The notes: generated by a model from the sequence alone, not told the origin. A stretch of 64,000 bases of DNA from an uncultured bacterium (GCA_964538455.1 CAZIDZ010000007.1:33645-97644), one strand, 5' to 3'. Positions 2,463-64,000 are shown, numbered from the stretch's first letter. Numbers and translations: made by a program.

Positions 2463-3230
2463 ATGGCGTCTCGATCGTTGAAGTCGCTCGAAGAGGATCT
2501 TCGTGCCCACGCCGGCCGCTTGCCGGAGCACATCGCTTTCATTATGGATGGCAACGGCAGGTGGGCGAAGGAGCGCGGCATGCCCCGCATGTTCGGCCAT
2601 CGCGAGGGTGTCAAATCGGTCCGCGAAATGGTCGAAACCGGCGTCGAGCTGGGCATCAAGGTGATGACGTTCTACACCTTCTCCAAGGAAAACTGGAGAC
2701 GTCCGAAGTCGGAGGTCTCCGGGTTGATGAAGCTGCTCGTCTCGACCATCCGCAAGGAAGTTGAGGACCTCGACAAGAATAACGTTCGCCTGCGCACCAT
2801 CGGACAGCTTGAGGATTTGCCGCCCGGACCCCGTGCCGAGTTCAGGGCCGCGATGAAGCAGCTCGAGCACAATGACGGCCTGCTGCTCGTGCTCGCGCTC
2901 TCTTACAGCGGCCGCCGAGAGATCACCCAGGCGGTCAACCGGCTGCTCGCCAGGGGCGTCAAACACGTTGATGAGCGGGCGTTTGCGTCGGCCCTCGAAA
3001 CCGCCGATCTCCCTGATCCTGACCTGCTGATCCGCACTTCAGGGGAGAATCGCCTGAGCAACTTCCTGCTCTGGCAGGCGGCCTACACTGAACTCTACAT
3101 CACCGACACGTACTGGCCCGATTTTCGCCGCCCGCAGCTGATTGCCGCCGTCCATGACTTTCTCCACCGCGAGCGTCGCTTTGGCCGCACCAGCGAACAA
3201 CTGATTCCATCGAAAGGTGAGGCACGGTGA
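2463..3230 (+). CDS. uppS: di-trans,poly-cis-undecaprenyl-diphosphate synthase (isoprenyl transferase)
   Basis: Hallmark motifs IAFIMDGNGRWA, FSKENWRRP and RTSGE.RLSNFLLWQ; 255 aa. Confidence 0.9.
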   Translation: MASRSLKSLEEDLRAHAGRLPEHIAFIMDGNGRWAKERGMPRMFGHREGVKSVREMVETGVELGIKVMTFYTFSKENWRRPKSEVSGLMKLLVSTIRKEVEDLDKNNVRLRTIGQLEDLPPGPRAEFRAAMKQLEHNDGLLLVLALSYSGRREITQAVNRLLARGVKHVDERAFASALETADLPDPDLLIRTSGENRLSNFLLWQAAYTELYITDTYWPDFRRPQLIAAVHDFLHRERRFGRTSEQLIPSKGEAR

Positions 3231-3910
3231 GTTCCGATCCGATCAAATCCGTGTTCCCGGAGCTCTGGGTGTCGGAAGCGGCCTACCCGGCGCTGATGCC
3301 GCGCAGCAGTGAGGACGTGATGAGCATCGTGCAGTGGTGCCGGGAGAACGGAATGCGCATCCTTCCGGTCGGCGGCGGACATTCCCTCGGCGAAAAATTC
3401 ACCGTCCCCAACGGTGTCGTCAGCCTCATCTCCCTGGCGCGCGATGGAGTCTCCGAACCGGACACCGGCGACCTTGCGATCGAGGTCGAGGCGGGAGTGC
3501 CCGCGGCGATGCTCCACCAACTGGTGCATGACGCCGGCCTCCGGCTCGACGGGTGGCCGGAAAACTACCCGGGAACGCTCGGCGGACTGTTCGCCGGTCT
3601 GCGCGGCCTCGAACTGCGCCACCTGGTCCTCGGCATGGACCTTGTCGACGGCCGGGGACGAAGCCTCCGCTTCGGCGGGCGCGTTCGAAAAAACGTCAGC
3701 GGCTTCGATGTCGCGGGAGTGATGATCGGAAGCCGTGGTACGCTGGGGTGGATCGATCGGCTCTACCTGAGATTGAGCCCGGGCGGCTCGACCCTGTTGG
3801 ATCGCAGGGGACCCGCCCCACTCGGACAGCCATCCTCTCCCAGGGGTCTATATCAACGCGTCGCTGTGGCGCTCGACCCCGACGGCGTTTTCCTGAAACC
3901 CGGGGAGTGA
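3227..3910 (+). CDS. FAD-binding oxidoreductase, GlcE/FAD-linked-oxidase-like, unusually short
   Basis: PCMH-type FAD-binding domain (ILPVGGGHSLGEKF…GTLGGLFAGLRG…RKNVSGFDV…IGSRGTLGWI) followed directly by the family's C-terminal tail (ALDPDGVFLKPGE). Only 227 aa, so the substrate/cap domain appears to be missing. Confidence 0.55.
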   Translation: MSSDPIKSVFPELWVSEAAYPALMPRSSEDVMSIVQWCRENGMRILPVGGGHSLGEKFTVPNGVVSLISLARDGVSEPDTGDLAIEVEAGVPAAMLHQLVHDAGLRLDGWPENYPGTLGGLFAGLRGLELRHLVLGMDLVDGRGRSLRFGGRVRKNVSGFDVAGVMIGSRGTLGWIDRLYLRLSPGGSTLLDRRGPAPLGQPSSPRGLYQRVAVALDPDGVFLKPGE

Positions 3911-8277: not shown

Positions 8278-10602
8278 ATGCGAATCGGGAACCTGAAGAC
8301 ACTGCTTTTCATCGTGTTGGCGCTGTTTTGCGTGAATTCTGCGAAGCTCGCGGCTCAACCCGCCCGACCCCAGGGAGTTAAGGTCCTCGGCGTCCGGGTC
8401 GTCGGCGCCAAAACCGCGGATGAAGGCCTCATCATCGCCAACAGCGGACTGGTCGTCGGCAAGGAGGTCGTCGGTGATGACATCCAGAATGCGATCAAAC
8501 GGATCTGGTCCCTGAAGCTCTTCAGGAATGTTGAAATCAGCATCGAAAAGGACCTGCCCGAAGGCAGCTACTTCGTCATCACCGTCGAGGAATACCCCCG
8601 CATCGCCGCCCTCGAAATCGCCGGAAACCACAAGCTGAAAGACGATGAGGTCAACGAGCAGATCACCCTCTACCGCGGCCAGGTGCTGCGCCCGGCGCGC
8701 CTGCAGAAGGCGCGGCGGGACCTGCTCAAGAAATACCACGAAAAGGGGTATCTGCTCGCGGAGGTAACCACCGAAATCACGGATACGGACGATCCGATGC
8801 AGAAGGACGTCAAGTTCGTGATCAAGGAGGGCAAGAAGGTCCGGATCAAGGAAATCGATTTCGTCGGCAATCAGGCGTTCAAGGACAGGGTGTTGCGCAA
8901 GCAGATGAAGGACACCCACCAGCGCGGTTTCCTGCGGAGCGGCACCTTCGACCGGACGAAGTTCGAGGATGACTTGAAGAAAGTGACCCAATTCTATAAA
9001 AATCACGGCTATCGAGACGCTCAAATCGAAAGTGATTCTTTATCTTACACCGAAGATCTGAAACGCATGATTATCACCATCCACGTGTACGAAGGCATGC
9101 AGTATGTCTTTGGTTCCGTTGATTTTGAGGGAAACTCGCTGTTCACGGACAACGAACTGCTGGCGCAGCTCTCGTTCAAACCCGGCGATGTGTACAACGA
9201 TGAGGAGCTCTTCGTCAACACCGCCGAGCGCCTCGGAAACCTTTATTATGAAAAAGGTTACATCTACTCGCGTGTCGAACCACAGCTGATTCCCGCCGCC
9301 GGGGATACATTGAACATCCGCTACCAGGTGACGGAAGGGAATCAGTTCAATGTCCGTAAAATCAATATATTGGGAAATACGAAGACCAAGGAGAAGGTGA
9401 TCCGCCGCGAATTCGTGCTCTATCCGGGGGACACCTTCGACGTCTTGAAGTTGCGACGTTCGATCCGCGAACTGACGATTCTCAACTACTTTTCGAACAT
9501 CACCCCGGATGTGCAGCCGGTCAGCGACAATCAGGTCGATCTCTTCGTGGACGTGGAGGAGAAGCCGACGGACAACGCGAATGTTTCCGCGGGCTACAGC
9601 GAATTGGACGGCGTGATCGGATCCATCGGTTTCGCGATGCCCAATTTCTTCGGGAACGGCCAGCAGTTTTCGCTGAACTGGAATTTCGGGCAGATTTACC
9701 GCAGCTTCTCGGTAAGTTTCACTGAGCCGTGGATGTTCAACACCCCGACACTCGGCGGGGTTAGTTTCTACGACCTGCGCCGCGGTGGCGCTTATTACGG
9801 TTTTGACGAAAACGTCACCGGTGGCTCGGTTCGCTTCGGAAGACGGTTCAAATGGCCGGACGACTACACCCGGGGCGACTGGATCTACAAGCTGGAGCGC
9901 TCGCTTTACAGCAATTTTGATATAGGTTACACCAACATTTACGGGTACGAAGAGGATGTGCCCCGGATCGGCAGTTCGTTCACCCAGATCTTCACCCGCG
10001 ACAGCCGGGACAACCCGGAGTTTCCGACGCGGGGAAGCGTGGTCAGTTATTCGGCCCAGCTGTCGGGTTCCATTTTTGGTGGAGATGAACAGTTTCACAA
10101 GCATTACCTGAGCGCTGAGTGGTATTTTCCGCTGACAAGCAAACTTGTTCTTTATAACCAGACCAAGGCCGGCCTGATCTTCAACCTGAGCGACCGGCGC
10201 AGCGACGTGCCGTACATTGACTACTTCTTCATGGGCGGCAGCGGCATCAGCTTTGGCGAATCCCTGCGCGGCTACGAAGAGGGGTCCGTCGGTCCCCGGT
10301 CCGGCGGCTACCCGCTCGGCGGCAGTAGTCTGTTCAAGGAGGGCGTCGAGCTGCGGTTTCCGCTGATCCCGAATCCGACGGTTTTCATTCTTGGATTCGC
10401 GGAGGCGGGCAACACCTGGTCGACGCGCGGGGAGATGGACTTGAACGACCTTCGCCGCAGCGCGGGCCTCGGCGTCAGGCTGTACATGCCCTTCGTCGGT
10501 CTGATCGGACTCGATTACGGGTACGGCTTCGATTATTACAGGGCAGATGGTTCCCGCTATGGGAAATGGGTGCCGGCTTTTCAATTCGGTCGAACGTTCT
10601 GA
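8278..10602 (+). CDS. bamA: outer membrane protein assembly factor BamA
   Basis: Signal peptide (MRIGNLKTLLFIVLALFCVNSAKLAAQ) and repeated POTRA-like segments (VRVVGAK…, IAALEIAGNHKL…, IKEIDFVGNQAF…, VRKINILGNTKT…). C-terminal Omp85 barrel ends in …AFQFGRTF (terminal aromatic). Start chosen at the internal ATG 8278; the upstream ORF extension has no signal peptide. Confidence 0.9.
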   Translation: MRIGNLKTLLFIVLALFCVNSAKLAAQPARPQGVKVLGVRVVGAKTADEGLIIANSGLVVGKEVVGDDIQNAIKRIWSLKLFRNVEISIEKDLPEGSYFVITVEEYPRIAALEIAGNHKLKDDEVNEQITLYRGQVLRPARLQKARRDLLKKYHEKGYLLAEVTTEITDTDDPMQKDVKFVIKEGKKVRIKEIDFVGNQAFKDRVLRKQMKDTHQRGFLRSGTFDRTKFEDDLKKVTQFYKNHGYRDAQIESDSLSYTEDLKRMIITIHVYEGMQYVFGSVDFEGNSLFTDNELLAQLSFKPGDVYNDEELFVNTAERLGNLYYEKGYIYSRVEPQLIPAAGDTLNIRYQVTEGNQFNVRKINILGNTKTKEKVIRREFVLYPGDTFDVLKLRRSIRELTILNYFSNITPDVQPVSDNQVDLFVDVEEKPTDNANVSAGYSELDGVIGSIGFAMPNFFGNGQQFSLNWNFGQIYRSFSVSFTEPWMFNTPTLGGVSFYDLRRGGAYYGFDENVTGGSVRFGRRFKWPDDYTRGDWIYKLERSLYSNFDIGYTNIYGYEEDVPRIGSSFTQIFTRDSRDNPEFPTRGSVVSYSAQLSGSIFGGDEQFHKHYLSAEWYFPLTSKLVLYNQTKAGLIFNLSDRRSDVPYIDYFFMGGSGISFGESLRGYEEGSVGPRSGGYPLGGSSLFKEGVELRFPLIPNPTVFILGFAEAGNTWSTRGEMDLNDLRRSAGLGVRLYMPFVGLIGLDYGYGFDYYRADGSRYGKWVPAFQFGRTF

Positions 10603-12201: not shown

Positions 12202-13596
12202 GTGCTGAAAAACCAGAGAACAATCGCCAAAGAGGTTGCGCTGGAGGGCATCGGGCTGCACACGGGCGTCAAAACAAAGATGACCTTCAAGCCCGCCCCG
12301 CCGGGCACCGGCTACTATTTCGAACGCGTTGACCTCGAGGGAAATCCCAAAATAAAGGCGGATATCGACCATGTGATCGACATCTCGCGCGGCACTACGA
12401 TCGCCCAGGGCGAGGTGAAAGTACACACCGTCGAGCACGTGCTCTCGGCCCTCGCGGGGCTCTCCATCGACAACTGCGTCGTTTCCCTCGACAACATCGA
12501 GCCCCCGGTCATCGACGGCAGCTCGAAACCGTTCGTGGACGCCCTGCTCTCGGCGGGACTCGCCGAGCAGGATTCCCCGAAAGAGTACCTCGAGATCAGC
12601 AAGACGCTCATCTATCACAACGAGGAGCAGGGCATCGACCTGGTCATCGTCCCCTCCGATGAGTTTCGCATTACTTACATGACCGATTACCGCAATCCCG
12701 CGCTGGGGACGCAGTACACCTCGATGTACAGCCTCGAGGAGGAATACGTCACCGAGTTCGCCTCCGCACGCACCTTCGCGTTCCTCTCCGAAGTGGAGGA
12801 GCTGAAATCCCAGGGGCTGATCAAGGGCGCCAGCCTCGACTCGGGCCTGCTGATCGTAGACAAGAAAATCAGTAAGAAGGAGCTCGAAGATCTTAAAAAG
12901 CTCTTCGGAGTTGACGGCGACATGAAGGTGGGGAAGACGGGCATCTTCGACGACCGCCCGCTGCGTTTTTACAACGAGCCCGTCCGTCACAAGGTGCTCG
13001 ACCTGATCGGGGATTTCGCCCTGCTGGGGATCCCGATCAAGGGGCATGTGATGGTTGCCCGCGCCGGGCACGCCGCACACGTCGAGATGGTGCGCAAGAT
13101 GCGCAAGATCTACCAGGAACGGCAGCTCAAGAAAAAGTACCAGCGCACCACCACCACCAGCTACGTTTTCGACATCAACGCCATCCAGCGGCTGCTCCCG
13201 CACCGTTACCCCTTCCTCCTGGTCGATCGCATTCTCGAACTGGAGCCGGGGGAGCGCGTCACCGGCATCAAGAACGTTTCGATGAATGAACCCTTTTTCC
13301 AGGGCCACTTTCCCGGGCACCCGATCATGCCGGGCGTCCTCGTCATCGAGGCGATGGGCCAGGTCGGCGGTGTTCTGCTGCTCAACGAATCCTCCGAACC
13401 CGAGAACAGCGTCGTTTACTTCACCGGCCTCGACAACGTCAAGTTCCGCCGTCCGGTGATGCCGGGCGACACTCTCTATTTCCGCGTAGAGATGATCTAC
13501 AACCGGCGCGGTATCTGCAAAATGAAGGGCGAGGCGTTCGTCGGGGACGAGCTGGCCGCCCAGGCGGAAATGCAGGCGATTGTGAGGGAAAGGTAG
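12202..13596 (+). CDS. lpxC/fabZ: bifunctional UDP-3-O-acyl-N-acetylglucosamine deacetylase / 3-hydroxyacyl-ACP dehydratase (LpxC-FabZ fusion)
   Basis: The N-terminal ~300 aa are LpxC (TIAKEVALEGIGLHTG…, HTVEHVLSAL, HAAHVEM). The C-terminal ~150 aa are FabZ (LLPHRYPFLLVDRILELEPGERVTGIKNVSMNEPFFQGHFPGHPIMPGVL). Confidence 0.9.
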   Translation: MLKNQRTIAKEVALEGIGLHTGVKTKMTFKPAPPGTGYYFERVDLEGNPKIKADIDHVIDISRGTTIAQGEVKVHTVEHVLSALAGLSIDNCVVSLDNIEPPVIDGSSKPFVDALLSAGLAEQDSPKEYLEISKTLIYHNEEQGIDLVIVPSDEFRITYMTDYRNPALGTQYTSMYSLEEEYVTEFASARTFAFLSEVEELKSQGLIKGASLDSGLLIVDKKISKKELEDLKKLFGVDGDMKVGKTGIFDDRPLRFYNEPVRHKVLDLIGDFALLGIPIKGHVMVARAGHAAHVEMVRKMRKIYQERQLKKKYQRTTTTSYVFDINAIQRLLPHRYPFLLVDRILELEPGERVTGIKNVSMNEPFFQGHFPGHPIMPGVLVIEAMGQVGGVLLLNESSEPENSVVYFTGLDNVKFRRPVMPGDTLYFRVEMIYNRRGICKMKGEAFVGDELAAQAEMQAIVRER

Positions 13597-26362: not shown

Positions 26363-27304
26363 ATGGTGAACTCCCTCGACGTCATCGGCGTCGGACGCGC
26401 CGTCATGGATTTCGCCGTGTTGGTCCCGGACTATCCGGAGCTGGACCGGAAAACAGAGGCGTTGGATCGGTTCTACGGCAGCGGCAGCCCCGTCCCCAAC
26501 GCCCTCTGCCAGCTTGCTCGGTGGGGATGGGACACGGCGCTGGTGGCGGCTGTCGGAGCGGACCGCGAAGGCGAGGATTTCACATCAAATCTCGCTTCTT
26601 GTTCCGTGGAAACCTCTTTTCTAACAAGAAGAGAGGGGCAATCGACGCCGAGAGCTTATATCTGGGTGGAAGAGCGTACCGGAAAGCGTACTGTCGTTTT
26701 GGATAGGGCACTTGCGCCGCTCTCGGACGGAGACCTACCTTTCCAAAGTCTGCATCAAGCCCGCTTCTTGTTGGCGGATGGATATGAAGCCGCTGCGAAT
26801 ATCGCGGCGATGAAAGCCGTCCGCGAGAAAGGCGGGGAAGTGATGCTGGACGTGGGGGCCGTCCGGGAGCTTATGGACGAGCAACTCGCGCTCTGTGATT
26901 GGATTATCGCCTCGCTCAACTTCGCCAAGCAACGCTTCGGAAACCTCGACCTGTTCCAGGTTGTCCGTGAGCTGCTCGGCTATGGTGCGAGGGGTGTCGT
27001 CGTGACAAACGGCGCTGGCGGCTGCGTCGCCACCTGGGAGGACGAGGTGGAATGGTTTCGCAGTTTCCCGGTCGCCACCGTGGACACGACGGGCGCGGGG
27101 GACATCTTCCACGCAGGATTCCTCCACGGCCGCTTGAAGGGGTGGTCGGTGCCGTCGTCCGTGCGATGGGCGGCTGCCGCCGCGGCCATCTCCACAACCG
27201 GCTTCGGTGGACGTGGAAAGCTGCCGGATGAAGCTGAGGTGCGCGAACTGTTGGTCAGGGAAGGGGAACCGTGGGACGGAGAGCCGGAAAACGAGTGGAA
27301 GTGA
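26363..27304 (+). CDS. PfkB-family carbohydrate kinase (ribokinase-like)
   Basis: N-terminal GVGRAVMD, and the C-terminal anion-hole motif VDTTGAGDIFHAGF. 313 aa. Confidence 0.8.
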   Translation: MVNSLDVIGVGRAVMDFAVLVPDYPELDRKTEALDRFYGSGSPVPNALCQLARWGWDTALVAAVGADREGEDFTSNLASCSVETSFLTRREGQSTPRAYIWVEERTGKRTVVLDRALAPLSDGDLPFQSLHQARFLLADGYEAAANIAAMKAVREKGGEVMLDVGAVRELMDEQLALCDWIIASLNFAKQRFGNLDLFQVVRELLGYGARGVVVTNGAGGCVATWEDEVEWFRSFPVATVDTTGAGDIFHAGFLHGRLKGWSVPSSVRWAAAAAAISTTGFGGRGKLPDEAEVRELLVREGEPWDGEPENEWK

Positions 27305-27414
27305 ATCCGGAGCAGGAGGATCAGCTTGCCCTGCCCGGGTTTGGACTTCCTTCCGGCAATGCGCGTAACGGCAACGGGGCGCAGAACGGGAAGCCCGAGG
27401 ACGTCTCCGCGGAA

Positions 27415-28191
27415 ATGGACGTTCCCGAGGAGCTGGAGATCGAGCTCCAGACACGCACCTTTTATCCGGGTAAGAAACATAATGGTCCCTGGCATAATAC
27501 AGTGTTTAAAGGCAATAACATGGACGTCCTTAAAAGCATGCCCAGTGAAACCGTGGACCTGATCCTCACCGACCCGCCTTACAACATCAACTACCGCTCC
27601 AACCGCCGGGTTAAAAAAGCAAAGTTCAAACACCTCGAGAACGACAACAACAACGACTGGATACCTGAGTTTGCCAAGGAAGCCCACCGTGTGTTGAAGA
27701 ATGACCGCCACCTCTACTGCTTCTGCCGGCACGACACCTATCCCCAGTTCATCGCTGCGTTTCAGGAAGCCGGTTTCAAACTGAAACGCACCCTGATCTG
27801 GGTCAAGAACAACCACGGAAGTGGCGATTTGAAAGGGGATTACGCCCCTCAGGACGAGTGGATCATCTATTGCCACAAGGGCCGCCGGGAACTATTCGGG
27901 AAGCGCATTTCGAACGTTCTCTATTTTCCCAGATTGAACAGCGACAAGTTGCGGCATTCGACAGAGAAACCGACAAAACTGCTGGAAAAGCTCATTGAGA
28001 AATCGACCAAGAAAGGAGAACTCGTTCTCGATCCCTTTGCGGGATCCGGGTCGACGATGTTCGCTGCAAAAGAGAAGGAACGGTACTATTGCATCATCGA
28101 GCTCGCCGACGCCTACTACCTGACCAGCGAGAAAAGACGCGGTGAACTCAATCAAACTTCGCTTGAGGAAAAACTGTACAAGGATCTCTGA
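27415..28191 (+). CDS. beta-class DNA methyltransferase (N6-adenine or N4-cytosine), apparently orphan
   Basis: Motif IV TDPPYN precedes motif I LDPFAGSGST, the beta-class order. The catalytic core is clearly AT-richer (~50% GC) than its surroundings. The open frame extends to 27271 with a low-complexity N-terminus. Alternative internal starts are 27415 and 27520, the latter with an AAAGG eight nt upstream. The TGA overlaps the ATG of the next gene. Confidence 0.75.
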   Translation: MDVPEELEIELQTRTFYPGKKHNGPWHNTVFKGNNMDVLKSMPSETVDLILTDPPYNINYRSNRRVKKAKFKHLENDNNNDWIPEFAKEAHRVLKNDRHLYCFCRHDTYPQFIAAFQEAGFKLKRTLIWVKNNHGSGDLKGDYAPQDEWIIYCHKGRRELFGKRISNVLYFPRLNSDKLRHSTEKPTKLLEKLIEKSTKKGELVLDPFAGSGSTMFAAKEKERYYCIIELADAYYLTSEKRRGELNQTSLEEKLYKDL

Positions 28192-31100
28192 TGGCCTGCG
28201 AACACAATCGGAACCGAAATGGACGCCGGGCGAAATCCCGGCCTTTCTCGTGCCTGATCGTCTTCGCCGCACTGGTGTTTCCCGGGGCCGTCAACGCCGC
28301 TTCTCAATGGCAGCAACGTCTCGTTTATCAGATTGATGTTTATCTACACGACCAATCACGATCCCTCGATGCGACCGCCAAAATCACCTACGTGAACAAC
28401 TCTCCCGACACGCTGGGAACGATCTGGTTCCGTTTGCCTCCGGCCGCGCTGCGAAATGATTCCCCGGTGGAGCAGACTCGCTACCGTGGGCTCAAACGCC
28501 GGCTCCGCGATGTACCGGAGAAGGAGTGGGGCAACCTTATCGTCCACGGCGCGAACTGCGTAACCCGCCAGGTCCGTTTCGAGCAGTCCGGAAGCGTTGG
28601 GCGCCTGCTGGTTGACCCAGCGATCCTGCCCGGAGATTCGCTCGAATTCAAAATCGAGTTCTCCACGAAATTTCCCACCGGTGAGGCGGAAGCCCGGATC
28701 GGGTACCGCCAGAGGCAGTACAAAGGGGCCTATTGGTACCCGATGGTTTGCCCGTATACGTCGATGTACGGTTGGACCGTGAACCGGTATTACGGCACGG
28801 CGGAGGCGTATGGCGAATTCGGCGACTACATCGTCCGCTACCACGTCCCCAACCGTTTCATCGTAGCCGCCACAGGCGAGTTGGTCAACGAGACCGAGGT
28901 GCTGCCTCCTGAACGGCTGGCCGGACTCGCTTTCGATAACCCGCACCCGATCTCAATCCCCGCCGGAGATGAGGGCGAAAAAGAAGTCGTTTGGGAGTAC
29001 CGGGCGCATAGCGTCCCCGAGGTCGCCTTTGCGATGGACCCGAATTTCCTCATTGATCGCAAGGGTTTCGGGCATTTCGAGGCCTGGGCGTTCGTGCGCC
29101 GTGGGCGGCAACAAAAATGGCCGGACGCCGCCGACCTGATGGGCTGGACGATCCTTCAGTTGGAACGGATTTACGGCCCCTATCCCTGGCCGAGGGTGAT
29201 GATGACCGATTCATGGTCCGGCATGGAATACCCGATGCTGACCATGATGAGCAGCGAGACCCCGCGCTATCGCTACTTCCTGATGCACGAGGTGATCCAC
29301 AATTACACGCCGATGATCATCCATTCAAATCCGGTGGATGCCCAGGTGCTCGATGAGGGATTCACGACGTTCGTCGAGCACACCCTCGCGGCTCGCTACG
29401 CGGGCACCGTGTGGAACAAGCTGACGGAGGTGGATCGCGGTCCGTTCCGGAAGGAAATGACGTTGCGGGATGACTGGGAGCGTGGATTGCGGCCCTACTT
29501 CACGGCGGTGCTCGCCGGGGAGGATCTGCCGATGGTGCGTGGGGCCGATGTGGCGGAGGACTATCCTCTGTTGCGCGCCTCCACCTATTACAAAACTCCC
29601 GTGATGCTCAACGCCCTGCGGTATGTCGTGGGTGAAGAGGCGTTCTGGAACGGGATGAAGGAGTATTACCGCCGGGGAGCGTTTCAGCACGTTGACGAGA
29701 CGGATGTGGTTGCAGCGTTCAGTGCCGCCGCGAACCGCCCCCTTGGGTGGTTTTTCAAACCGTTCTTGTACGGTTCCGGCGACATCGACTACCGCATCGG
29801 GCACTTCTCCGTAGAGCAACAGGGCTCCTCGTGGCGCGTGAAATTCACCGTCTCCCGGCCGGGCGACATCCGTTTGCCCGTGAGGCTCGGAGTGATCACC
29901 GCTTCGGGGGACACCCTGCTCGGTGAAATTCCCTTCCTCGACACGGACCCCGGGCTGCCGGGCTACGGGCGATGGGGCACGTGGGATCAGCTGCACGAAC
30001 CGGATGATTCCAGGACATTTCAAGCCGACCTGGCCACGGCATCCAGGCCGGTTGAACTGGTTCTCGATCCCGGCCACCTGCTGGCGGACCGCAACCCGAT
30101 GAACAACTCCACCCGGCATCATCTCGCCGTCCGCTTCGATACGGGAATTCTTCCGACGGCTCCCGGCGTCCTCGATCGGCCCGCACTTCGGTTCTCCCCG
30201 GCCGTCGGGTATGGGGAGGACATGGGAACCTTGGCGGGCGTCAACGTCAATCACGGTTGGATGAACACGGTCTCCCGTTTTCAAGTGCAGGCGCTCGGGA
30301 CGATAAATCCGCCGGGAGAGGATTACCTTGCGCGCTTCGGTTTTTCCAACCCGATACCACCGGGAAACGGCCCCATCCGGGCATCGGTCTACGCGGGCAA
30401 AGCGTTCGAGGAAATCTGGTACGAAGGGGGTGTCGAGGCTAAATGGCGGCTGTGGCGGCCGGAACGAACGAGTTACCGCGCAAGACTTCGCATCGGACAT
30501 TGGGAACGCGATCGATCGATGGATTCCCACCCCAGCTCATCCTACCTGATGGTAATGCTCAAGAAGAAGTGGACGGCCCTGTACGGCAGAAGTGCCTCCA
30601 CGGACGTCTGGATGGCCTCTGGGCTGCAATCTGTGGGATGGTTCTCCCTCGATGCATCTCACCGGACGATCTATGATCTAGCTGCCTATGACTACCTGCC
30701 TGTTCTCCGCTGGTTCAGGAGTTTTCGCCTTGAACTTTCGGAGAGATATGTGGCGCAGGATGGGCGTGTTCCCTCGCTGTTTCTTGCGACTCCTGCATTC
30801 GGAATGCATTACCTGGTGCTCGGCTCGCCGGTCGCAGGTGCACCGTGGACTTCACTTGCAGGTCCTTACGTGGATCGCCCTGCGCTGGTTCCCGGGCTCA
30901 TCAATTCCGATCCGTTGCGGGACTTCGTTTCGCTGGGCACTCGAATGGATTGGTCGCCGCGGTCCCTGTTCGATCCCCGAACGGATATCTTTATCAGCCG
31001 CTTTTGTCAACATTTGCATTTCGGGATTTGGGGCAGCGGTTTGACACGCAGTCTTAAATTCACCTCGCGGGAAATTGCGTACAGTGCTGGAGTGGACGCT

Positions 31101-31262
31101 CAATTGGCTGACTTTTATGGTCTTACATTGACTCTGGCATTGCCGGTCGTGGTCAAACGTCCGGGCAAGATTCGAGCCGACTATGATGGATTGCGTTCCC
31201 TTACCTGGAACCAGAATGTTCGATTTCTGATCTCTTTGGATTCGGATCTTTTTGTACGTTGA
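28191..31262 (+). CDS. secreted M1-family zinc metallopeptidase with a large C-terminal extension
   Basis: Signal peptide (CLIVFAALVFPGAVNA). GAMEN-like SGMEYP, then HEVIHNY (HExxH) and Glu 19 residues later (LDEGF). The ~450-aa C-terminal region is beta-rich with no recognised domain. Confidence 0.7.
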   Translation: MACEHNRNRNGRRAKSRPFSCLIVFAALVFPGAVNAASQWQQRLVYQIDVYLHDQSRSLDATAKITYVNNSPDTLGTIWFRLPPAALRNDSPVEQTRYRGLKRRLRDVPEKEWGNLIVHGANCVTRQVRFEQSGSVGRLLVDPAILPGDSLEFKIEFSTKFPTGEAEARIGYRQRQYKGAYWYPMVCPYTSMYGWTVNRYYGTAEAYGEFGDYIVRYHVPNRFIVAATGELVNETEVLPPERLAGLAFDNPHPISIPAGDEGEKEVVWEYRAHSVPEVAFAMDPNFLIDRKGFGHFEAWAFVRRGRQQKWPDAADLMGWTILQLERIYGPYPWPRVMMTDSWSGMEYPMLTMMSSETPRYRYFLMHEVIHNYTPMIIHSNPVDAQVLDEGFTTFVEHTLAARYAGTVWNKLTEVDRGPFRKEMTLRDDWERGLRPYFTAVLAGEDLPMVRGADVAEDYPLLRASTYYKTPVMLNALRYVVGEEAFWNGMKEYYRRGAFQHVDETDVVAAFSAAANRPLGWFFKPFLYGSGDIDYRIGHFSVEQQGSSWRVKFTVSRPGDIRLPVRLGVITASGDTLLGEIPFLDTDPGLPGYGRWGTWDQLHEPDDSRTFQADLATASRPVELVLDPGHLLADRNPMNNSTRHHLAVRFDTGILPTAPGVLDRPALRFSPAVGYGEDMGTLAGVNVNHGWMNTVSRFQVQALGTINPPGEDYLARFGFSNPIPPGNGPIRASVYAGKAFEEIWYEGGVEAKWRLWRPERTSYRARLRIGHWERDRSMDSHPSSSYLMVMLKKKWTALYGRSASTDVWMASGLQSVGWFSLDASHRTIYDLAAYDYLPVLRWFRSFRLELSERYVAQDGRVPSLFLATPAFGMHYLVLGSPVAGAPWTSLAGPYVDRPALVPGLINSDPLRDFVSLGTRMDWSPRSLFDPRTDIFISRFCQHLHFGIWGSGLTRSLKFTSREIAYSAGVDAQLADFYGLTLTLALPVVVKRPGKIRADYDGLRSLTWNQNVRFLISLDSDLFVR

Positions 31263-31267
31263 AGGTG

Positions 31268-32710
31268 ATGATGCTTCCGGTAAAAACGTTCCACGATCCC
31301 CCTCGACTCCATTTTAGCGGCATCGGGGGCACCGCGATGGTCGCCGGGGCGCGGCTCGCCCTGGAGGCGGGGTGGGAGGTGCGCGGCAGCGACAGTCCGC
31401 TCTACCCTCCGACATCGGAGATGGTTCACGAACTGGGGGTTCATCTCTACGAGGACTATGCCGCGAAAAATCTCGACTGGGGACCGGATCTCGTTCTTGT
31501 TGGCAACGCACTGAGCCGTGGAAATCCGGAAGTCGAGGAACTGCTGAGAAAGCGGATCCCCTACGCCAGCCTGCCCGAATGGCTGAAGAGTGTGGTGCTG
31601 CAGGCCCGGCGTCCGGTGATGGTCAGCGGAACCCACGGCAAGACCACGACATCCGCGCTCGCCGCTTTTCTTCTCGATCGCTGTGGATTGGAACCCGGAT
31701 TTCTAATCGGTGGACAGCCTCTCGACTTTTCCCATTCGAGTAGGCTGGGCGCCGAAGGCACCCCGTTTGTCATCGAAGGCGATGAGTACGACACCGCGTT
31801 CTTTGACAAACGCGCCAAGTTTTTCCATTACATCCCCGAAATTGCGGTGGTCACCTCGATCGAGTTTGACCACGGCGATATTTACGCGAGCGTGGAGGAG
31901 ATCGAAAGGGCTTTCCGCCTGATGCTTCGTCAGGTGCCGCCGGGGGGCTGGTTGATCGCCTGCGCGGACGACCCGCGTGCGGCCGCACTGACAAAGGATG
32001 CTCCCTGCAAAACCTTTACCTACGGTTTCTCGCAGGATGCCCACTGGCGAGGCCAGGAGACCGGAATCTCCTCCGGATTCAGCGGACTCGCCGTGTACCG
32101 TGGCCGGGAGCGGTTCGCGGAACTTGCGGTGCCGCTTTTCGGTCGCCACAATCTGCAGAATACCCTCGCGGCGGTCGCCGTGGCGGCAATTTTGGGCGCG
32201 TCGAGCCGCGATATTCAGGACGCGGTGATGCAGTTTCGCGGGGTGCGGCGGCGGATGGAAGTCTTCCTCACTGTGGGGCAGAGGCTGTTCGTGGATGATT
32301 TCGCGCACCACCCGACGGCAATCCGGGAGACGATCGCCGCTGCACGGTTGCGCTGGCCGGACCGGAAACTTCGAGTTGTGATTGAACCTCGATCCAACAC
32401 GATGGTCCGCCGCACACACGAAAAGGCGCTGGCGGGTGCCTTGTCAGGTGCCGACGAGGTCGTAATCGGTCCCATTTACCGCCAGGAACGGGTTCCTGAA
32501 GCCGATCGCCTCGATCGGGGAAAAGTCTTATCCGAATTGAAGAATCACGAGGTACAAGGCTTTTCCACCGATTCCGTCGATGAGATACTAAAATTCCTTA
32601 TGGATGTTGATGAAACAAGGGATATCGACCTGATTCTTTCCAACGGCGCCTTTGGCGGCCTGTGCGAGATGCTGGCCAAAGCCTATAAAGAAACAAAATC
32701 CGAAAGTTAG
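31268..32710 (+). CDS. mpl: UDP-N-acetylmuramate:L-alanyl-gamma-D-glutamyl-meso-diaminopimelate ligase (murein peptide ligase)
   Basis: HFSGIGGTAM, P-loop VSGTHGKTTT, and the DEYD/Mur-ligase central and C-terminal domains. The 31 kb start is ambiguous (TTG 31259, GTG 31265, ATG 31268/31271). Confidence 0.8.
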   Translation: MMLPVKTFHDPPRLHFSGIGGTAMVAGARLALEAGWEVRGSDSPLYPPTSEMVHELGVHLYEDYAAKNLDWGPDLVLVGNALSRGNPEVEELLRKRIPYASLPEWLKSVVLQARRPVMVSGTHGKTTTSALAAFLLDRCGLEPGFLIGGQPLDFSHSSRLGAEGTPFVIEGDEYDTAFFDKRAKFFHYIPEIAVVTSIEFDHGDIYASVEEIERAFRLMLRQVPPGGWLIACADDPRAAALTKDAPCKTFTYGFSQDAHWRGQETGISSGFSGLAVYRGRERFAELAVPLFGRHNLQNTLAAVAVAAILGASSRDIQDAVMQFRGVRRRMEVFLTVGQRLFVDDFAHHPTAIRETIAAARLRWPDRKLRVVIEPRSNTMVRRTHEKALAGALSGADEVVIGPIYRQERVPEADRLDRGKVLSELKNHEVQGFSTDSVDEILKFLMDVDETRDIDLILSNGAFGGLCEMLAKAYKETKSES

Positions 32711-32898
32711 CAGGGTTGAAATGAAAGTCCCGCTTGCGGGAAATTGACAGTATATGTGGAAGATCTGGGAGCGGATGCGATCCTGGTGGACGCCGCGGCC
32801 TTCAAAGCCGTTGTGGGACCTGACCGTCCCGGCTCGGTTCGATTCCGAGACGTTCCCGCTACTCTCAGCGGCGCACGATACAGGCGCTGCCAAGAGAG

Positions 32899-38050: not shown

Positions 38051-38626
38051 GTGAAACGTGGAACGGTCATCATTCTGATTGTTGTTGCGGTACTTGTGAT
38101 CCTGGGCTTCTCGGTCTATTCCTTTGTCCGCGGGACCTACAACTCGCTGGTCAACATGGAGGAGACGGTCAGCGGTTCCTGGGCCGAAGTGGAGAACAAC
38201 CTGCAGCGCCGCTATGACCTGATTCCGAACCTGGTGAACACAGTGAAGGGCTACGCCAAGCAGGAGCAGCAGGTGCTGCTGGGCGTCACCGAAGCCCGGG
38301 CCAAAGTGGGCGGCGCGACCAGCCAGGGGCAGCGGATGGACGCGGAAAACCAGTTGTCCGGTGCCCTCTCCAGGCTGCTGCTCGTCGTGGAGAATTACCC
38401 GCAGCTGAAATCCGACGCCAACTTCCGCCAGCTTCAGGACGAGCTCGCCGGTACGGAAAACCGCCTCGCTGTTGCACGGAAACGCTACAACGATTCGGTG
38501 AGGAATTACAACGTGATGCTGCGGAGCTTCCCGCAGAACATCATCGCGGGCATGTTCGGGTTCACCAAGAAGGAGTTCTTCCAGGCTCCCCAGGCGTCCC
38601 AGGAAGCCCCCGAGGTGCAGTTCTGA
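38051..38626 (+). CDS. lemA: LemA-family protein
   Basis: N-terminal TM, then the LemA signature …NSLVNMEETVSGSWAEVENNLQRRYDLIPNLV…YPQLKSDANFRQLQDEL…NDSVRNYN. GTG start with AAGGAGG six nt upstream. Confidence 0.8.
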   Translation: MKRGTVIILIVVAVLVILGFSVYSFVRGTYNSLVNMEETVSGSWAEVENNLQRRYDLIPNLVNTVKGYAKQEQQVLLGVTEARAKVGGATSQGQRMDAENQLSGALSRLLLVVENYPQLKSDANFRQLQDELAGTENRLAVARKRYNDSVRNYNVMLRSFPQNIIAGMFGFTKKEFFQAPQASQEAPEVQF

Positions 38627-39414
38627 TGACCGCCGCCCCGGGACGATCCGGGGTCGTCGCGCTGTTAACGGATTTCGGCGTGCAGGACGATTTCGTCGGC
38701 CTGCTGCATGCCGTGATTCTTTCCGTGAATCCTGCTCTGCGGATCGTCGACCTATGCCACCATGTGCCTCCCGGGAATGTCCGAGCGGGGGCGTTTCTGC
38801 TCTGGCACGATTTTCAGCTGCTGCCCGCGGGATCGGTCGTCGCTGCCGTGGTCGATCCGGGGGTGGGCTCCGACAGGGCGTTGCTCGCGGCCGACGTGGA
38901 AAATCGACTGCTCGTCGCGCCGGACAATGGGTTGATCGCGCCGCTTCTGGAGGGAAAGAAACCCGTTCGCGTCCATCGCCTGGAAAACAGGGAGTGGAGC
39001 AGGCCCCGGCCCTCGACGACCTTCCACGGTCGGGACTGGATCGCTCCCGCCGCGGCTCAGTTGGCGTCCGGAGCGGCGTTGTCGCAGGCGGGCCCTGCCG
39101 TGGATCGGTGGGAGACAGTGGCCATTGCTCCTCTGGAACGGGAGGGTGGCGTTGTCGGTGAAGTGTTGTGGGTGGACAGGTTCGGAAATCTCGTCACCAA
39201 CCTGTCCGCAGCCGATGCCGAGCGGAGAGCATTGGAAATCGGCGGAACCCCCCTCCGCCGAGTGGCCACGTTCGTCGAGGCGGACGAAGGCGAGACGGTG
39301 TGGTTGATCGGCAGCAGGGGAACGGTTGAAATTGTATGCAACGGAGCATCGGCGTCCAGGGCGCTCGGCCTTGGCCTGGGTGCACACATTCGGCTTGTTG
39401 CAGGGGCAACCTGA
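38626..39414 (+). CDS. SAM hydroxide adenosyltransferase family protein (DUF62; fluorinase/chlorinase-like SAM hydrolase)
   Basis: VALLTDFGVQDDFVG…AVVDPGVGS…VDRFGNLVTN are the family motifs. 262 aa. Confidence 0.75.
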   Translation: MTAAPGRSGVVALLTDFGVQDDFVGLLHAVILSVNPALRIVDLCHHVPPGNVRAGAFLLWHDFQLLPAGSVVAAVVDPGVGSDRALLAADVENRLLVAPDNGLIAPLLEGKKPVRVHRLENREWSRPRPSTTFHGRDWIAPAAAQLASGAALSQAGPAVDRWETVAIAPLEREGGVVGEVLWVDRFGNLVTNLSAADAERRALEIGGTPLRRVATFVEADEGETVWLIGSRGTVEIVCNGASASRALGLGLGAHIRLVAGAT

Positions 39415-62100: not shown

Positions 62101-62854
62101 CGTCCTGAAGAACTACAAGAACAGCAAGTGGGTCCCCTACGCGAAATACGAATTGGGGCGGGATCTGCTCGAGCAGAACCGTACCGGCCAGGGAATGGAG
62201 CTGCTCTCGGACCTCCCGCGGCGCTATCCGGGAAACCCGATACTTGGACGCGTGTGGTGGATTCTCGGCAACCAGTACGCACAATCGGGCGACATCATGG
62301 AGGCCGTCAAGACCTACGATAAGGTGCTCACCGACAGCAGCTACATGGACACCTGGCCGTTCGTTCTCGTCAACCAGATCAGTGCCTACCGGAACGCCGG
62401 TTTTTACGCCGGCGCGTTGCAGGCCGCACAGCGTTACCTCGAGTTCTATCCTGACGCGCCCGACGCCTTCGACCGCCAGATGGACGTTGGCTTGATGTAC
62501 CTCCAGATGGGACAGTATGATCTCGCCATCTCCCAGTTCAGGAAGATTCAGCCCCTCGCCGACGTCGAGGATGAGGCGGCCATCCAGTTCTACATCGGGG
62601 AGTCTCTCGAAAAATCGGGACGTCTCGCCGAGTCGGTGATCGAATACAAAAAGGTGGACTACCTCGGCAAGAGGACGAAAATGGAGTGGGCGGTGACCGC
62701 TTTGTACAACGCCGGGCGTGTCCTCGAACGCCTTGGTCAGAACGATCAGGCGCTGAATATGTACAAGGAAATCGTGCGGCGTGAGGGGCTGGCGAGCCCC
62801 TTCGGCAGGAAGGCTCAGGAGCAGGTGGACCGCCTCCAATCGGGGAAAGGGTAG
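59159..62854 (+). CDS. very large secreted TPR-repeat protein
   Basis: Signal peptide MRRVGLWTAWVLCLLLLGILLPMAAPAQ, then >20 TPR/Sel1-like repeats across ~1230 aa. ATGA overlap with the helicase stop. Confidence 0.6.
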   Translation: MRRVGLWTAWVLCLLLLGILLPMAAPAQTEHEADFLYARRLYQDGLYDLAVEALERYLAADPESPHRVEAYLIIGDARWKEKKLDLARQAYQRAAMADPDDPRAVDALTKVADSYLSENDWQKAARAEQRIAVYYPNSPVAPAALTRTARILIEHGHFNQAEAPVQQVLRQYPQSTHQREARLLWARVLADRGELEKAAEEAGTVAHSTRDADLAVEALSFQGEWYWRLGRDPDAEAAWRRILDNYPRASKRAEALTRMGRLRLQIGDAVQAEAILRDALGSVQKDSLLEWQARLGLADALLLEGKPVEALLHLNRLEGVVPPEVAYRKALALEAAGRNVEAISAYRALGQGTDTLAAGARWRTANLLEKAGRTREAAEAWQWAEQAMPSGLQKSEARYRALALTLKLEPLRALEMTASFMDEYPRSPHVDDVELLRAEALLALGRRKEAVEAFRDIGTTWPVSPYRYDAEARADFLETIVLPKGDPSTKLAGLVAEFAGGRDRRDLSLRLAEVYLKELKDYPAAKKQLDDLLADSTVDKARRLQARELLAETLWRNFLRETRTDDGSLSTDVPARRAAAQRTIEDLRQLLPFLKDPRVRAETSWRLLHLEADARSGLDSLLFVRKVLQDHLAEYPDSPHAGDAYLELGKAFIVVAKGVDDPAKGDPSLWYLEAFRDKYPDHARYAEGLLLLADRYVKAKMYAPAEQTYRSIIRLDPTPERVEAVIALLDPQWTKSSQGVENDLEWVRTHAWYHPGLQRSRRLLVQRLMDGGHFREAAEELTALGQLNMEWGAGLVIEGASDLQLAWYWGQVYEGLQQLDKARDEYRRYLSRNPSGQDADRIRLKLAELRKGQKYYDDALRLYRRLLTDASDYHIRDAALQGAATILFAQEQYDAAMRYAEQVVDTKGIPSDTAFAYGKMAVICRYRIGDLEEARKSANAFRKKWSRMEGLYDVSAEFELERGKWLSKQKNYPEAEHYYNRVLKNYKNSKWVPYAKYELGRDLLEQNRTGQGMELLSDLPRRYPGNPILGRVWWILGNQYAQSGDIMEAVKTYDKVLTDSSYMDTWPFVLVNQISAYRNAGFYAGALQAAQRYLEFYPDAPDAFDRQMDVGLMYLQMGQYDLAISQFRKIQPLADVEDEAAIQFYIGESLEKSGRLAESVIEYKKVDYLGKRTKMEWAVTALYNAGRVLERLGQNDQALNMYKEIVRREGLASPFGRKAQEQVDRLQSGKG

Positions 62855-63223
62855 CGGCGGCCGTGAAAATGAAAGGTCAAGACTGGAAGAAGTAGTCATC
62901 CTGAACCACCGAAGGTGAGTGAAGGATCTATGTTTTCGCCGTAATCCATTGATAAAACAAAGATTCTTCCCCGACGGATCGGGACAGGCACTTCGTTCAG
63001 AATGACTTCGGGTCGCAGTTTTCCTAAGTCGCTTTTTCAATACTCTTGAATGCCATTATTCGTTATCATCAAAGGAACGTTGATCTGATTTAAACCGCTG
63101 TTACAGTCTTGAGTTAAGTGAAAAAACATCAATCCATATCAGGGGAAAGTCGACGCTCGCTGAACGCAAGCGCAAAGACGGGCGCGGTTGGAAAAACATA
63201 AGTCACCGCAAGGGAAAACGCGC

Positions 63224-64000
63224 ATGAGTGAAAACAGCCTGCTGCAAGCGGTCGGACAGCCCTGGCTTGAGGCCCAGGTGGATGCCGCCTTGCGCGAGGA
63301 TCTGGACAAGGCGGGCGACATCACCAGCGCCGCGACGGTTCCCGAAAACCGCCAGGGATTGGCCGAACTGATCTCCAAAGGGGAGGGGATTCTCTGCGGC
63401 GCGGACTGGGCGAGCCTCTGCGGAGATCGAACCGAACCCCCTGTGCGCTGGGAATTTCTCGTTTCTGATGGCGAAGCGGTGCGCCCGGGACAGGTGCTCG
63501 CGAGGGTGTACGGCCCGATGCGCGGAATCCTGATTTCGGAGCGCGCCTGCCTGAACGGGCTTGGACACCTTTCCGGGATCGCGACCGCGGCGGCAAAAGC
63601 GGCCGAACTCGTCAAGGGAACGCATGCGCAGGTGATCGATACCCGCAAGACCTTCCCCGGATGGCGTCTCGCGGAAAAGTATGCCGTCCGCTGTGGCGGC
63701 GCGGGCAACCACCGCATCGGCCTGTTTGATGAAATCCTGATTAAAGAAAACCACGTCGAAGCGGCCGGAGGGGTGCTCCCTGCGGTGAAAGCGGCGAAAA
63801 CCTGGCGCTCCCAGCAGCATAACCGTTCAGCTATCCCGATCGAGGTGGAGGTGCGCAATCTCGGCGAGTTTCGCAGCGCACTGGAGGCGGAGCCCGATCG
63901 TATTCTTCTGGACAATTTTGCGCTCGATGCCATGCGTGAGGCGGTAAACTTGGCGAGGGGAGCTGTGCTCCTTGAGGCGTCGGGCGGTATTACCCTTGAA
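63224..64000 (+). CDS. nadC: nicotinate-nucleotide diphosphorylase (carboxylating) / quinolinate phosphoribosyltransferase, 3'-truncated by the window edge
   Basis: Not in the ORF track (no stop inside the window). My translation from ATG 63224 gives …TRKTFPGWRLAEKYAVRCGGAGNHRIGLFDEILIKENH…ILLDNF…, the QPRTase signature. Confidence 0.75.
   Translation, partial: MSENSLLQAVGQPWLEAQVDAALREDLDKAGDITSAATVPENRQGLAELISKGEGILCGADWASLCGDRTEPPVRWEFLVSDGEAVRPGQVLARVYGPMRGILISERACLNGLGHLSGIATAAAKAAELVKGTHAQVIDTRKTFPGWRLAEKYAVRCGGAGNHRIGLFDEILIKENHVEAAGGVLPAVKAAKTWRSQQHNRSAIPIEVEVRNLGEFRSALEAEPDRILLDNFALDAMREAVNLARGAVLLEASGGITLE

Follow-up and report, generated by a model that had tools for sequence, protein, structure and literature searches.

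A solitary beta-class DNA methyltransferase with a conserved N-terminal extension in an envelope operon of an uncultured bacterium

The subject of this study is a DNA methyltransferase (MTase) gene within a 64,000-nucleotide (nt) stretch of DNA from an uncultured bacterium (GCA_964538455.1 CAZIDZ010000007.1:33645-97644), hereafter the window, in which positions are counted from the first letter. Our analyses made us fairly confident that this gene encodes an old, vertically inherited and solitary beta-class DNA amino-MTase that resides in an envelope operon and carries a clade-specific N-terminal extension. The gene belongs with the lineage-conserved orphan (“persistent”) MTases, as its synteny is conserved without a restriction partner, its codons are host-like and it is under purifying selection. 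None of the marks of a horizontally acquired islet was found with respect to codon usage, repeats, integrase, tRNA or patchiness among five relatives. An earlier sequence-only reading had interpreted the gene differently, as a low-GC core acquired by horizontal transfer and perhaps fused in frame to a GC-rich native N-terminus. The open reading frame (ORF) and the main elements of its catalytic region, which includes the binding site for S-adenosylmethionine (SAM), were as follows.

27271..28191, + strand: longest ORF of the MTase, 306 codons plus stop
27553..28128, + strand: PF01555 N6_N4_Mtase catalytic domain, residues 95-286 (Pfam E 5.7e-36)
27571..27582, + strand: motif IV DPPY (catalytic), residues 101-104, invariant in alignments A1 and A2
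27808..27852, + strand: subfamily signature NNHGSGDLKGDYAPQ, a nearly invariant loop (columns N181 to P193 invariant or nearly so)
28036..28050, + strand: motif I FAGSG (SAM binding), residues 256-260, downstream of motif IV

Inheritance and base composition of the methyltransferase gene

A search of 5.8 billion proteins identified 31 clusters with 63-100% identity to the MTase, of the same length and with the same N-terminal extension. In all five of the distinct related genomes with genomic context (loci L002-L005 and L013; L003 and L008 are one contig, counted once), the gene order was intact, comprising a glycosyltransferase (GT2), a hypothetical protein (hyp), a penicillin-binding protein (PBP1), a SPOR protein, a pfkB-family sugar kinase (pfkB), the MTase, an M1-family metallopeptidase (M1) and a murC-type Mur ligase (murC). 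Within this group (clade A), the identities to the window proteins were 66-81% for the MTase, 61-81% for murC, 57-87% for PBP1, 41-76% for M1 and 32-75% for the SPOR protein. Vertical inheritance was supported by the MTase identity, as it tracked that of murC and PBP1 and exceeded that of M1 and SPOR. Relative to the closest relative (L002), the synonymous divergence (dS) of the MTase was 1.28, with neighbours at 1.09-1.61, and its ratio of non-synonymous to synonymous divergence (dN/dS) was 0.093, with 0.096 for pfkB and 0.081 for murC; as dS was near saturation, these values are comparative only.

More distant relatives indicated which parts of the array are oldest. Three loci (L007, L011 and L012) had the order PBP1-SPOR-hyp-MTase-murC with no M1, and there the MTase had 47-49% identity versus 38-43% for murC. 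The order dnaE-dtd-MTase-murC was found in a Calditrichota metagenome-assembled genome (MAG) and in Ca. Hatepunaea meridiana (phylum Electryoneota). MTase and murC were neighbours in clades A' and B and, apart from the intervening M1, in clade A; M1 was absent between the two genes in L006, L007, L011, L012 and L088. Since the deeper relatives keep MTase-murC without M1, the pair must be old, with M1 and pfkB being later arrivals. The murC downstream of the MTase in a Calditrichota MAG locus (L006 6831-8588) encodes 585 residues and has extra C-terminal zf_Tbcl zinc-finger domains.

Other clades had surroundings of their own. A proline-dehydrogenase-linked clade (C) had the MTase directly after the gene for this enzyme in no fewer than 11 loci, and another clade in Flavobacteriaceae had its own fixed housekeeping context; neither had a restriction partner. 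Each of clades A, A', B, C and D had a conserved housekeeping context, and the subfamily extended across FCB-group lineages, namely Calditrichota, Electryoneota, relatives labelled KSB1, and Flavobacteriaceae. After clustering at 50% identity, clades A, B and C collapsed to three representatives scoring 411, 391 and 343 bits, with the next at 303 and 268, in a wider family of 1,379 representatives at E <= 1e-30. One clade-C locus (L021 7158-8825, from MAG LacPavin_0920_SED4_MAG_61_11) had a 555-residue ORF in which proline dehydrogenase was fused in frame to the MTase; ~13 residues are missing from the start of its MTase portion, the C-terminal ...RRDETLPLPL is retained, and the fusion could be genuine or a product of faulty assembly. 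Many family members (P0130, P0132, P0139, P0143, P0171, P0178, P0224 and others) were 370-560 residues long, with the MTase domain C-terminal to a long N-terminal region.

Some observations weigh against a purely vertical history. Members of the wider PF01555 family abound in phages and plasmids, and an ancient origin from a phage or restriction-modification (R-M) methylase is possible. In addition, the full array is known from only five related genomes, which is a small sample, and clade genomes without the gene would escape searches of this kind. A search for a close donor among phage and plasmid collections gave top matches of only 42.8% and 39% identity.

The base composition of the MTase core, on which the transfer interpretation had drawn, was examined in 720-nt intervals. 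The reported drop to ~50% GC at ~27470-28190 was correct, as this segment had 50.3% GC versus a window mean of 61.0% (standard deviation (sd) 0.030 for 720-nt intervals; z = -3.5) and was the lowest-GC 720-nt interval of all 64 kb. The flanks were indeed richer than the core, although the figure of ~65% given for them was slightly high, with measured values of 0.59-0.65; the first ~200 nt of the MTase ORF had a GC of 0.62. The GC at third codon positions (GC3) of the low-GC core was 0.67, compared to 0.68-0.74 in the adjacent genes and a mean of 0.73 (sd 0.056) for 46 window ORFs, and the GC drop was located in codon positions 1 and 2. To obtain an expected GC, the amino-acid sequence of the core was re-encoded with the window's own synonymous codon frequencies, which gave 0.528 expected versus ~0.504 observed, so that protein composition accounted for ~77% of the 10.5-point deficit. 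The core is rich in lysine (11.7% vs 3.4%) and asparagine (7.1% vs 3.0%). The residual GC after amino-acid correction was -0.024 for the core, compared to -0.024 for pfkB, -0.023 for M1 and -0.026 for murC.

The orthologues behaved in the same manner. Their GC3 followed the host (0.19 at a genomic GC of 34% and 0.88 at one of 68%), and a dip in total GC of -0.04 to -0.08 at the MTase was present in 5/5 clade-A relatives. Other low-GC 720-nt intervals (0.506-0.519) occurred at window positions 8461-9961, 1061-1981 and 62401-63381. The first of these lies inside the BamA gene, for which a GC of 0.560 was observed and 0.562 was expected from amino-acid composition; as this stretch is also predicted by protein composition, the MTase dip is not unique in kind. 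The local trough in GC thus arises from a lysine- and asparagine-rich, strongly constrained protein encoded in a GC-rich genome, and not from foreign DNA. A protein of this composition can by itself create a low-GC patch in a GC-rich genome, and comparison of GC3 with the GC of codon positions 1 and 2 separates this situation from import.

Two findings had been named beforehand as contradicting the transfer interpretation, namely GC and codon usage of the core within the range of the genome, and orthologues between pfkB and the peptidase in all relatives. The core GC was extreme, but the codon usage was native, with a residual equal to those of pfkB, M1 and murC, and an orthologue was present between pfkB and M1 in all five related genomes recovered. 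As both results go against the transfer interpretation, it was refuted as first framed.

Catalytic class and predicted specificity

The identification of the protein as a beta-class amino-MTase, already made from the sequence alone, was confirmed. Its PF01555 score was 125 bits against a gathering cut-off of 26.7, and the position of DPPY (motif IV) N-terminal to FAGSG (motif I) defines the beta-class permutation. An AlphaFold2 (AF2) model built from a 65-sequence alignment had a predicted TM-score (pTM) of 0.81. The best Foldseek match to this model was the CcrM-DNA complex 6PBD (E 8e-19, TM 0.63), followed by rotifer N4CMT, M.BceJIV, M1.HpyAVI, M.MboIIA, M.PvuII and M.RsrI, and the top 38 matches were beta-class DNA MTases throughout. 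By sequence, the closest protein in the PDB (phmmer) was M1.HpyAVI (5HEK; E 3e-22, residues 85-290 aligned), which forms N6-methyladenine (m6A).

The protein was not an orthologue of CcrM or YhdJ. Against the CcrM equivalog (NCBIfam NF050803) it scored 90 bits with partial matches only, compared to a cut-off of 830, and against the YhdJ equivalog (NF008572) it scored 94.5 bits compared to 292. Given the latter result, the source names “YhdJ” on the family members P0018 and P0030 are loose. The Dam model TIGR00571 gave 19.8 bits against a cut-off of 114.85. Based on the failure to reach the curated CcrM and YhdJ cut-offs, we assign the MTase by sequence to a distinct, previously undescribed subfamily of beta-class DNA MTases. 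The signature loop NNHGSGDLKGDYAPQ sets apart the syntenic orphan clades and had a predicted local confidence (pLDDT) of 56 in the apo model; such low confidence would be compatible with a loop that contacts DNA.

Several comparisons place the enzyme among known MTases. CcrM (M.CcrMI, Caulobacter crescentus), a cell-cycle-regulated m6A enzyme, similarly has a beta-class PF01555 core and is solitary, lineage-conserved and located among housekeeping genes. However, the two proteins have only 26% identity, and the MTase chain stops ~20 residues past the catalytic core, so that the ~80-residue C-terminal DNA-binding domain of CcrM is absent, and the MTase has an N-terminal extension with a tether instead. 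M1.HpyAVI (Helicobacter pylori, 5HEK/5HFJ) has a compact catalytic domain of similar size and is an m6A beta-class enzyme, but at ~25% identity and with no terminal extension its specificity is not transferable. Dam of gamma-proteobacteria, the archetype of a vertically inherited orphan maintenance MTase, resembles the enzyme in that it is syntenic, native in composition, under purifying selection and unaccompanied by a restriction partner, and differs in its alpha permutation class (PF02086).

The DPPY form of motif IV, as opposed to SPPY, favours N6-adenine methylation, and the MTase is most likely N6-adenine specific, as judged from its motifs and relatives. A point against this is that enzymes producing N4-methylcytosine (rotifer N4CMT and M.PvuII) are also among its structural neighbours. 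Assignment of a recognition sequence by homology was rejected, since the nearest characterised enzymes were only 20-26% identical. By extension from the family, the enzyme would flip its target base and methylate the exocyclic amine at a short sequence, genome-wide and without a restriction partner, and would have a maintenance or epigenetic role in the manner of Dam and CcrM.

N-terminal extension and candidate sliding-clamp motif

The features of the N-terminal extension were as follows.

27301..27390, + strand: disordered N-terminal tether, residues 11-40, with tip motif and NGNG linker (AF2 pLDDT 44-54 for residues 1-40)
27322..27342, + strand: tip motif Q-L-A-L-P-G-F, residues 18-24, candidate Hda-like sliding-clamp-binding motif
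27367..27378, + strand: NGNG element in the linker, residues 33-36 (71-94% column identity, 31 orthologues)
27391..27495, + strand: ordered part of the extension, residues 41-75, AE.xVP.ELE.EL..R.F, with a helix at residues 53-62 (AF2 pLDDT 81-94)

In the 31 orthologues the extension was retained as three islands, comprising a tip of the form [Q/T/S]-phi-x-phi-P-G-phi-E-P (phi being a hydrophobic residue), the NGNG element and the segment AE.xVP.ELE.EL..R.F. The ordered segment packed on the catalytic domain in the AF2 model, had a dN/dS of 0.071 and contained three residues (A47, E48 and R62) that were 100% conserved. The tether had a dN/dS of 0.195 relative to L002. At the tip, the columns were Q in 58% of orthologues, hydrophobic in 94%, x, hydrophobic in 100%, P in 94%, G in 90% and hydrophobic in 94%; the hydrophobic, P and G columns were thus 90-100% conserved, compared to 6-40% for the linker. 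As the extension is conserved, under purifying selection and partly ordered on the core, it is not a lineage-specific fusion, and the proposal of native DNA joined to an acquired core did not hold.

In-frame starts for the MTase were present at 27271, 27295, 27301, 27415, 27502, 27520 and 27538. The likely real starts are GTG 27301, GTG 27295 or GTG 27271. The first of these makes a GTGA 4-nt overlap with the pfkB stop, as in L002-L005, and aligns with the Met of P0003; gene callers start the 100% identical 298-residue protein P0001 at 27295. Initiation at 27415 or 27520, which had been suggested as possible, was rejected, as it would remove the invariant A47 and E48, or G72, W74 and the G-x-N strand, plus well-modelled structure.

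Published clamp-binding consensus forms are Q-phi-x-L-F and Q-phi-x-L-x-L, and N-terminal clamp-binding hexapeptides are known in Hda (QLSLPL) and HdaA (QFKLPL). Positions 1-5 of the tip QLALPGF fit the Hda type. The strict clade-A tip pattern was found in 22/31 orthologues compared to ~0 in shuffles, and Q-phi-x-[LF]-P in 14/31. As in Hda and HdaA, the Q-phi-x-L-P element precedes the catalytic domain and is located on a flexible stretch; it differs from theirs in having G or E, not L, at position 6, an aromatic at position 7, and often T or S in place of Q, and the proteins are otherwise unrelated.

The patterns of clades A and C were derived post hoc from the sequences tested, so that the shuffle tests show conservation only. 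As an independent test, the literature-defined pentapeptide, fixed beforehand, was applied to 147 family representatives at <= 50% identity. Q-phi-x-L-F was present at the extreme C-terminus of six of these (QLSLF twice, QLGLF, QLKLF and QMKLF twice), compared to 0.014 expected from shuffled tails and 0/802 in a background of unrelated proteins encoded at the same loci (Fisher p = 1.3e-5). When relaxed to Q-x-x-phi-F, the tail occurred in 12/147 representatives versus 4/802 in the background (p = 1.3e-7), and the interior motif density equalled background (0.045 vs 0.044 per 1000 residues). The carriers of the pentapeptide were only 30-50% identical to each other and therefore do not form one subclade. 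In one representative, P0224 (which begins MLTQSSQLTLFASG), QLTLF was at residues 7-11, which indicates that N-terminal placement occurs in the family.

Clade C proteins have no N-terminal extension; they are extended at the C-terminus instead, by ~45 residues of basic character with [RK][RK]D[QE][TS]-L-x-[LF]-x-[LFI] at the end. This tail motif was found in 35/39 sequences, in 21 of them at the very last residues. Its hydrophobic spacing is that of the hexapeptide, with T or S at position 1, and its position is like that of the C-terminal QLVLGL of Pol IV. The motifs were on disordered termini, with pLDDT < 50 at the clade C tip and 44-54 over residues 1-40 in the window MTase. Peptides representing the terminal motifs are NPEQEDQLALPGFGLPS, RARKDQTLPLPL and KKAKQLSLF. 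Clade B proteins (P0032-P0056; e.g., L088 6001-6714) had tails of the form Y-x-phi-x-phi-P (YNLKIP, YKVTIPSELL, YHLEIPSEL and YQTEFPAISK), which may be a third terminal-motif variant.

Based on these observations, we tentatively propose that the window MTase, its sister clades and scattered PF01555 members may be tethered to the beta sliding clamp by terminal motifs, coupling methylation to the replication fork, a proposal we regard as possible rather than probable. In that reading, the motif may be N-terminal and Hda-like in clade A, C-terminal and hexapeptide-like in clade C, and elsewhere the canonical C-terminal QLSLF, QLGLF or QLKLF. The ordered N-terminal segment would buttress the core, with a ~30-residue disordered tether beyond it, whose tip (Q-L-x-L-P-G-F) would most plausibly serve for docking; among candidate partners the beta sliding clamp comes first, if with some doubt.

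A number of results count against clamp binding. QLALPGF fits neither published consensus exactly, as its last hydrophobic residue is at +7 and not +5 or +6, and ~40% of orthologues have T, S or N in place of the tip Q. Three DnaE proteins of related lineages, which might have served for calibration, had no recognisable clamp motif with the patterns used. 

As a negative control, the LF-type tail was looked for in 43 more distant genomic homologues (0/43) and in three translated phage copies (0/3); among the 43, the tails of the four Flavobacteriaceae loci are of an S.R[LM]F type, which the pattern did not score. No annotated phage methylase with a canonical C-terminal motif was found with queries P0225 and P0228, whose alignments stop before the tail. 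Targeted literature searches yielded no account of a bacterial DNA methyltransferase that binds the clamp, and neither clamp nor replisome is mentioned in a 2026 review.

Beta-class MTases such as CcrM act as dimers on DNA, and the terminal extensions could instead be arms for homodimerisation or non-specific DNA binding. The best structural match being a CcrM dimer-DNA complex would suit such a role, as would the very basic clade C linker with its moderate pLDDT (71-81) and the packing of the ordered clade A segment on the core. Arms would account neither for the canonical pentapeptide ends in unrelated family members nor for a conserved tip on a variable linker, and we consider this explanation improbable. 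It is also conceivable that the motifs are degrons for Lon or ClpXP that restrict the MTase to part of the cell cycle, as for CcrM, which is expressed once per cell cycle and then rapidly degraded. This precedent, the disordered termini, and the resemblance of the clade C tails (...TLPLAL and ...TLPLAI after a basic stretch) to C-terminal protease tags as generally known all speak for degrons. However, what is enriched in the family is the exact clamp consensus (QLSLF, QLGLF, QLKLF and QMKLF), which is not a known degron, and the clade A motif is 4-17 residues from the N-terminus and not at it; degrons thus seem to us an unlikely explanation.

Two further alternatives concern the enzyme as a whole. 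Its substrate might be RNA or protein and not DNA, which would fit the conserved housekeeping context of the operon and the weak resemblance of the DPPY region, at sub-threshold Pfam scores, to the RNA-methylase families UPF0020 and Cons_hypoth95. Those matches were short and mostly below the curated cut-offs, whereas the match over the entire domain, the circular permutation and all of the structural neighbours were those of DNA MTases, and a substrate other than DNA is accordingly very hard to credit. A similarly slight chance attaches to the core being a recent acquisition from a lost R-M system or mobile element, fused to native GC-rich DNA. The GC trough that suggested it is real and the deepest in the window, and relatives in the wider PF01555 family are common on phages and plasmids. 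On the other side are a GC3 and codon residual the same as those of the adjacent native genes, orthologue GC3 that tracks the host, synteny in five genomes and the deeper MTase-murC link, dS within the range of the neighbours, and an extension that is conserved and partly structured. Moreover, there were no flanking repeats, integrase or adjacent tRNA, and the best mobile-element match was 42% identical. Our preferred reading remains that of an old, vertically inherited and solitary DNA MTase.

Operon context and significance

The neighbouring genes and the junction with M1 were as follows.

26363..27304, + strand: pfkB-family sugar kinase, upstream neighbour (Pfam; a variable neighbour, found in clade A only)
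28189..28193, + strand: TGATG stop/start overlap of MTase and M1 (TGA 28189-28191, ATG 28191-28193; sequence CTCTGATGG)
28191..31262, + strand: M1-family metallopeptidase, 1023 residues (PF01433, E 4.7e-9)
31259..32710, + strand: murC-type Mur ligase, downstream (Pfam; deeply conserved MTase partner)

The MTase is resident in a long co-directional operon of lpxD/C/A, rseP, glycosyltransferases, PBP1, SPOR, pfkB, MTase, M1 and murC, in an uncultured lineage of the FCB group that has Calditrichota and Electryoneota as relatives. The N-terminus of M1 (MACEHNRNRNGRRAKSRPFSCLIVFAALVFPGAVNAAS) resembles a Sec signal peptide, as judged by eye. The overlap of MTase and M1 had been taken to imply co-transcription, and this part of the sequence-only reading stood. 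The coupling was not special, as overlaps of -4 or -1 nt were the rule along the operon (TPR/hyp260, GT1/GT2, hyp303/PBP1, PBP1/SPOR, MTase/M1 and M1/murC); it is thus real but generic, and M1 is the newcomer. In relatives the MTase/M1 junction was a 1-nt overlap in L002, overlaps of 8 nt in L003 and 11 nt in L004, and an 18-nt gap in L005. A sigma-70 promoter scan of 18.5-34 kb gave 2 hits versus 2.7 by chance, with a tool that is without FCB-type promoters, and an intrinsic-terminator scan of the same region gave 13 versus 13.8 by chance; neither scan was informative.

Pfam was searched with every substantial ORF of the 64 kb, and PADLOC with the ORFs adjacent to the MTase. The window genes were mostly those of envelope biogenesis, and included UppS, TamB, BamA, Skp, LpxD, LpxC-FabZ, LpxA, RseP, glycosyltransferases, PBP1, the SPOR protein, pfkB, the MTase, M1, MurC, YggS, DivIVA, LspA, PurF, CysS, an AcrB-type pump, YceG and UvrD. 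These scans identified neither a restriction endonuclease nor a specificity subunit, integrase, defence or phage gene in the window, in agreement with what had been noticed for the adjacent genes, and the related loci examined were likewise without R-M, defence, integrase or phage genes beside the MTase. A search for direct and inverted repeats around the MTase gave only short imperfect matches within the pfkB and M1 coding sequences. The MTase is solitary, as had been suggested, in that it has no adjacent restriction partner; a distant partner elsewhere in the genome is possible.

Additional features of the window were identified. A selenocysteine tRNA (tRNA-Sec) gene is directly downstream of murC at 32767-32857 (+) (Rfam RF01852, 66 bits vs a gathering score of 47), 4.5 kb downstream of the MTase and past M1 and murC, and implies selenoprotein use by the organism. 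A fused LpxC-FabZ (464-residue ORF, 12202-13596 (+), PF03331 and PF07977) lies between lpxD and lpxA. A SAM-cleaving SAM hydroxide adenosyltransferase (PF01887, PF20257) is encoded at 38626-39414 (+), 10 kb downstream of the MTase, a proximity that is probably coincidental. A 227-residue ORF at 3227-3910 (+) has a MurB-like FAD_binding_4 domain but falls below the usual length of MurB; the ORF may have been given a wrong start or extent.

As the MTase is as conserved as murC, it is a candidate for a lineage-wide epigenetic enzyme comparable to Dam or CcrM. A literature search found nothing relevant on the methylomes of Calditrichota or Electryoneota. The subfamily is compact (three clusters at 50% identity) and has been kept solitary in fixed housekeeping contexts of poorly known FCB-group lineages. 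The enrichment of canonical motifs at family C-termini would make the clamp proposal testable by simple peptide-binding assays. In eukaryotes, DNMT1 is tethered to PCNA via a PCNA-interacting protein (PIP) box on its disordered N-terminal region, and the proposed arrangement would likewise place a maintenance MTase on a replication clamp by a short linear motif. The likeness is a functional analogy only, as DNMT1 is a eukaryotic enzyme with C5-cytosine chemistry that uses a different motif and PCNA, not DnaN. Should the terminal motifs indeed bind the clamp, the MTase would provide the first example in bacteria of maintenance methylation that is coupled to replication through direct tethering to the clamp, a counterpart of DNMT1-PCNA.

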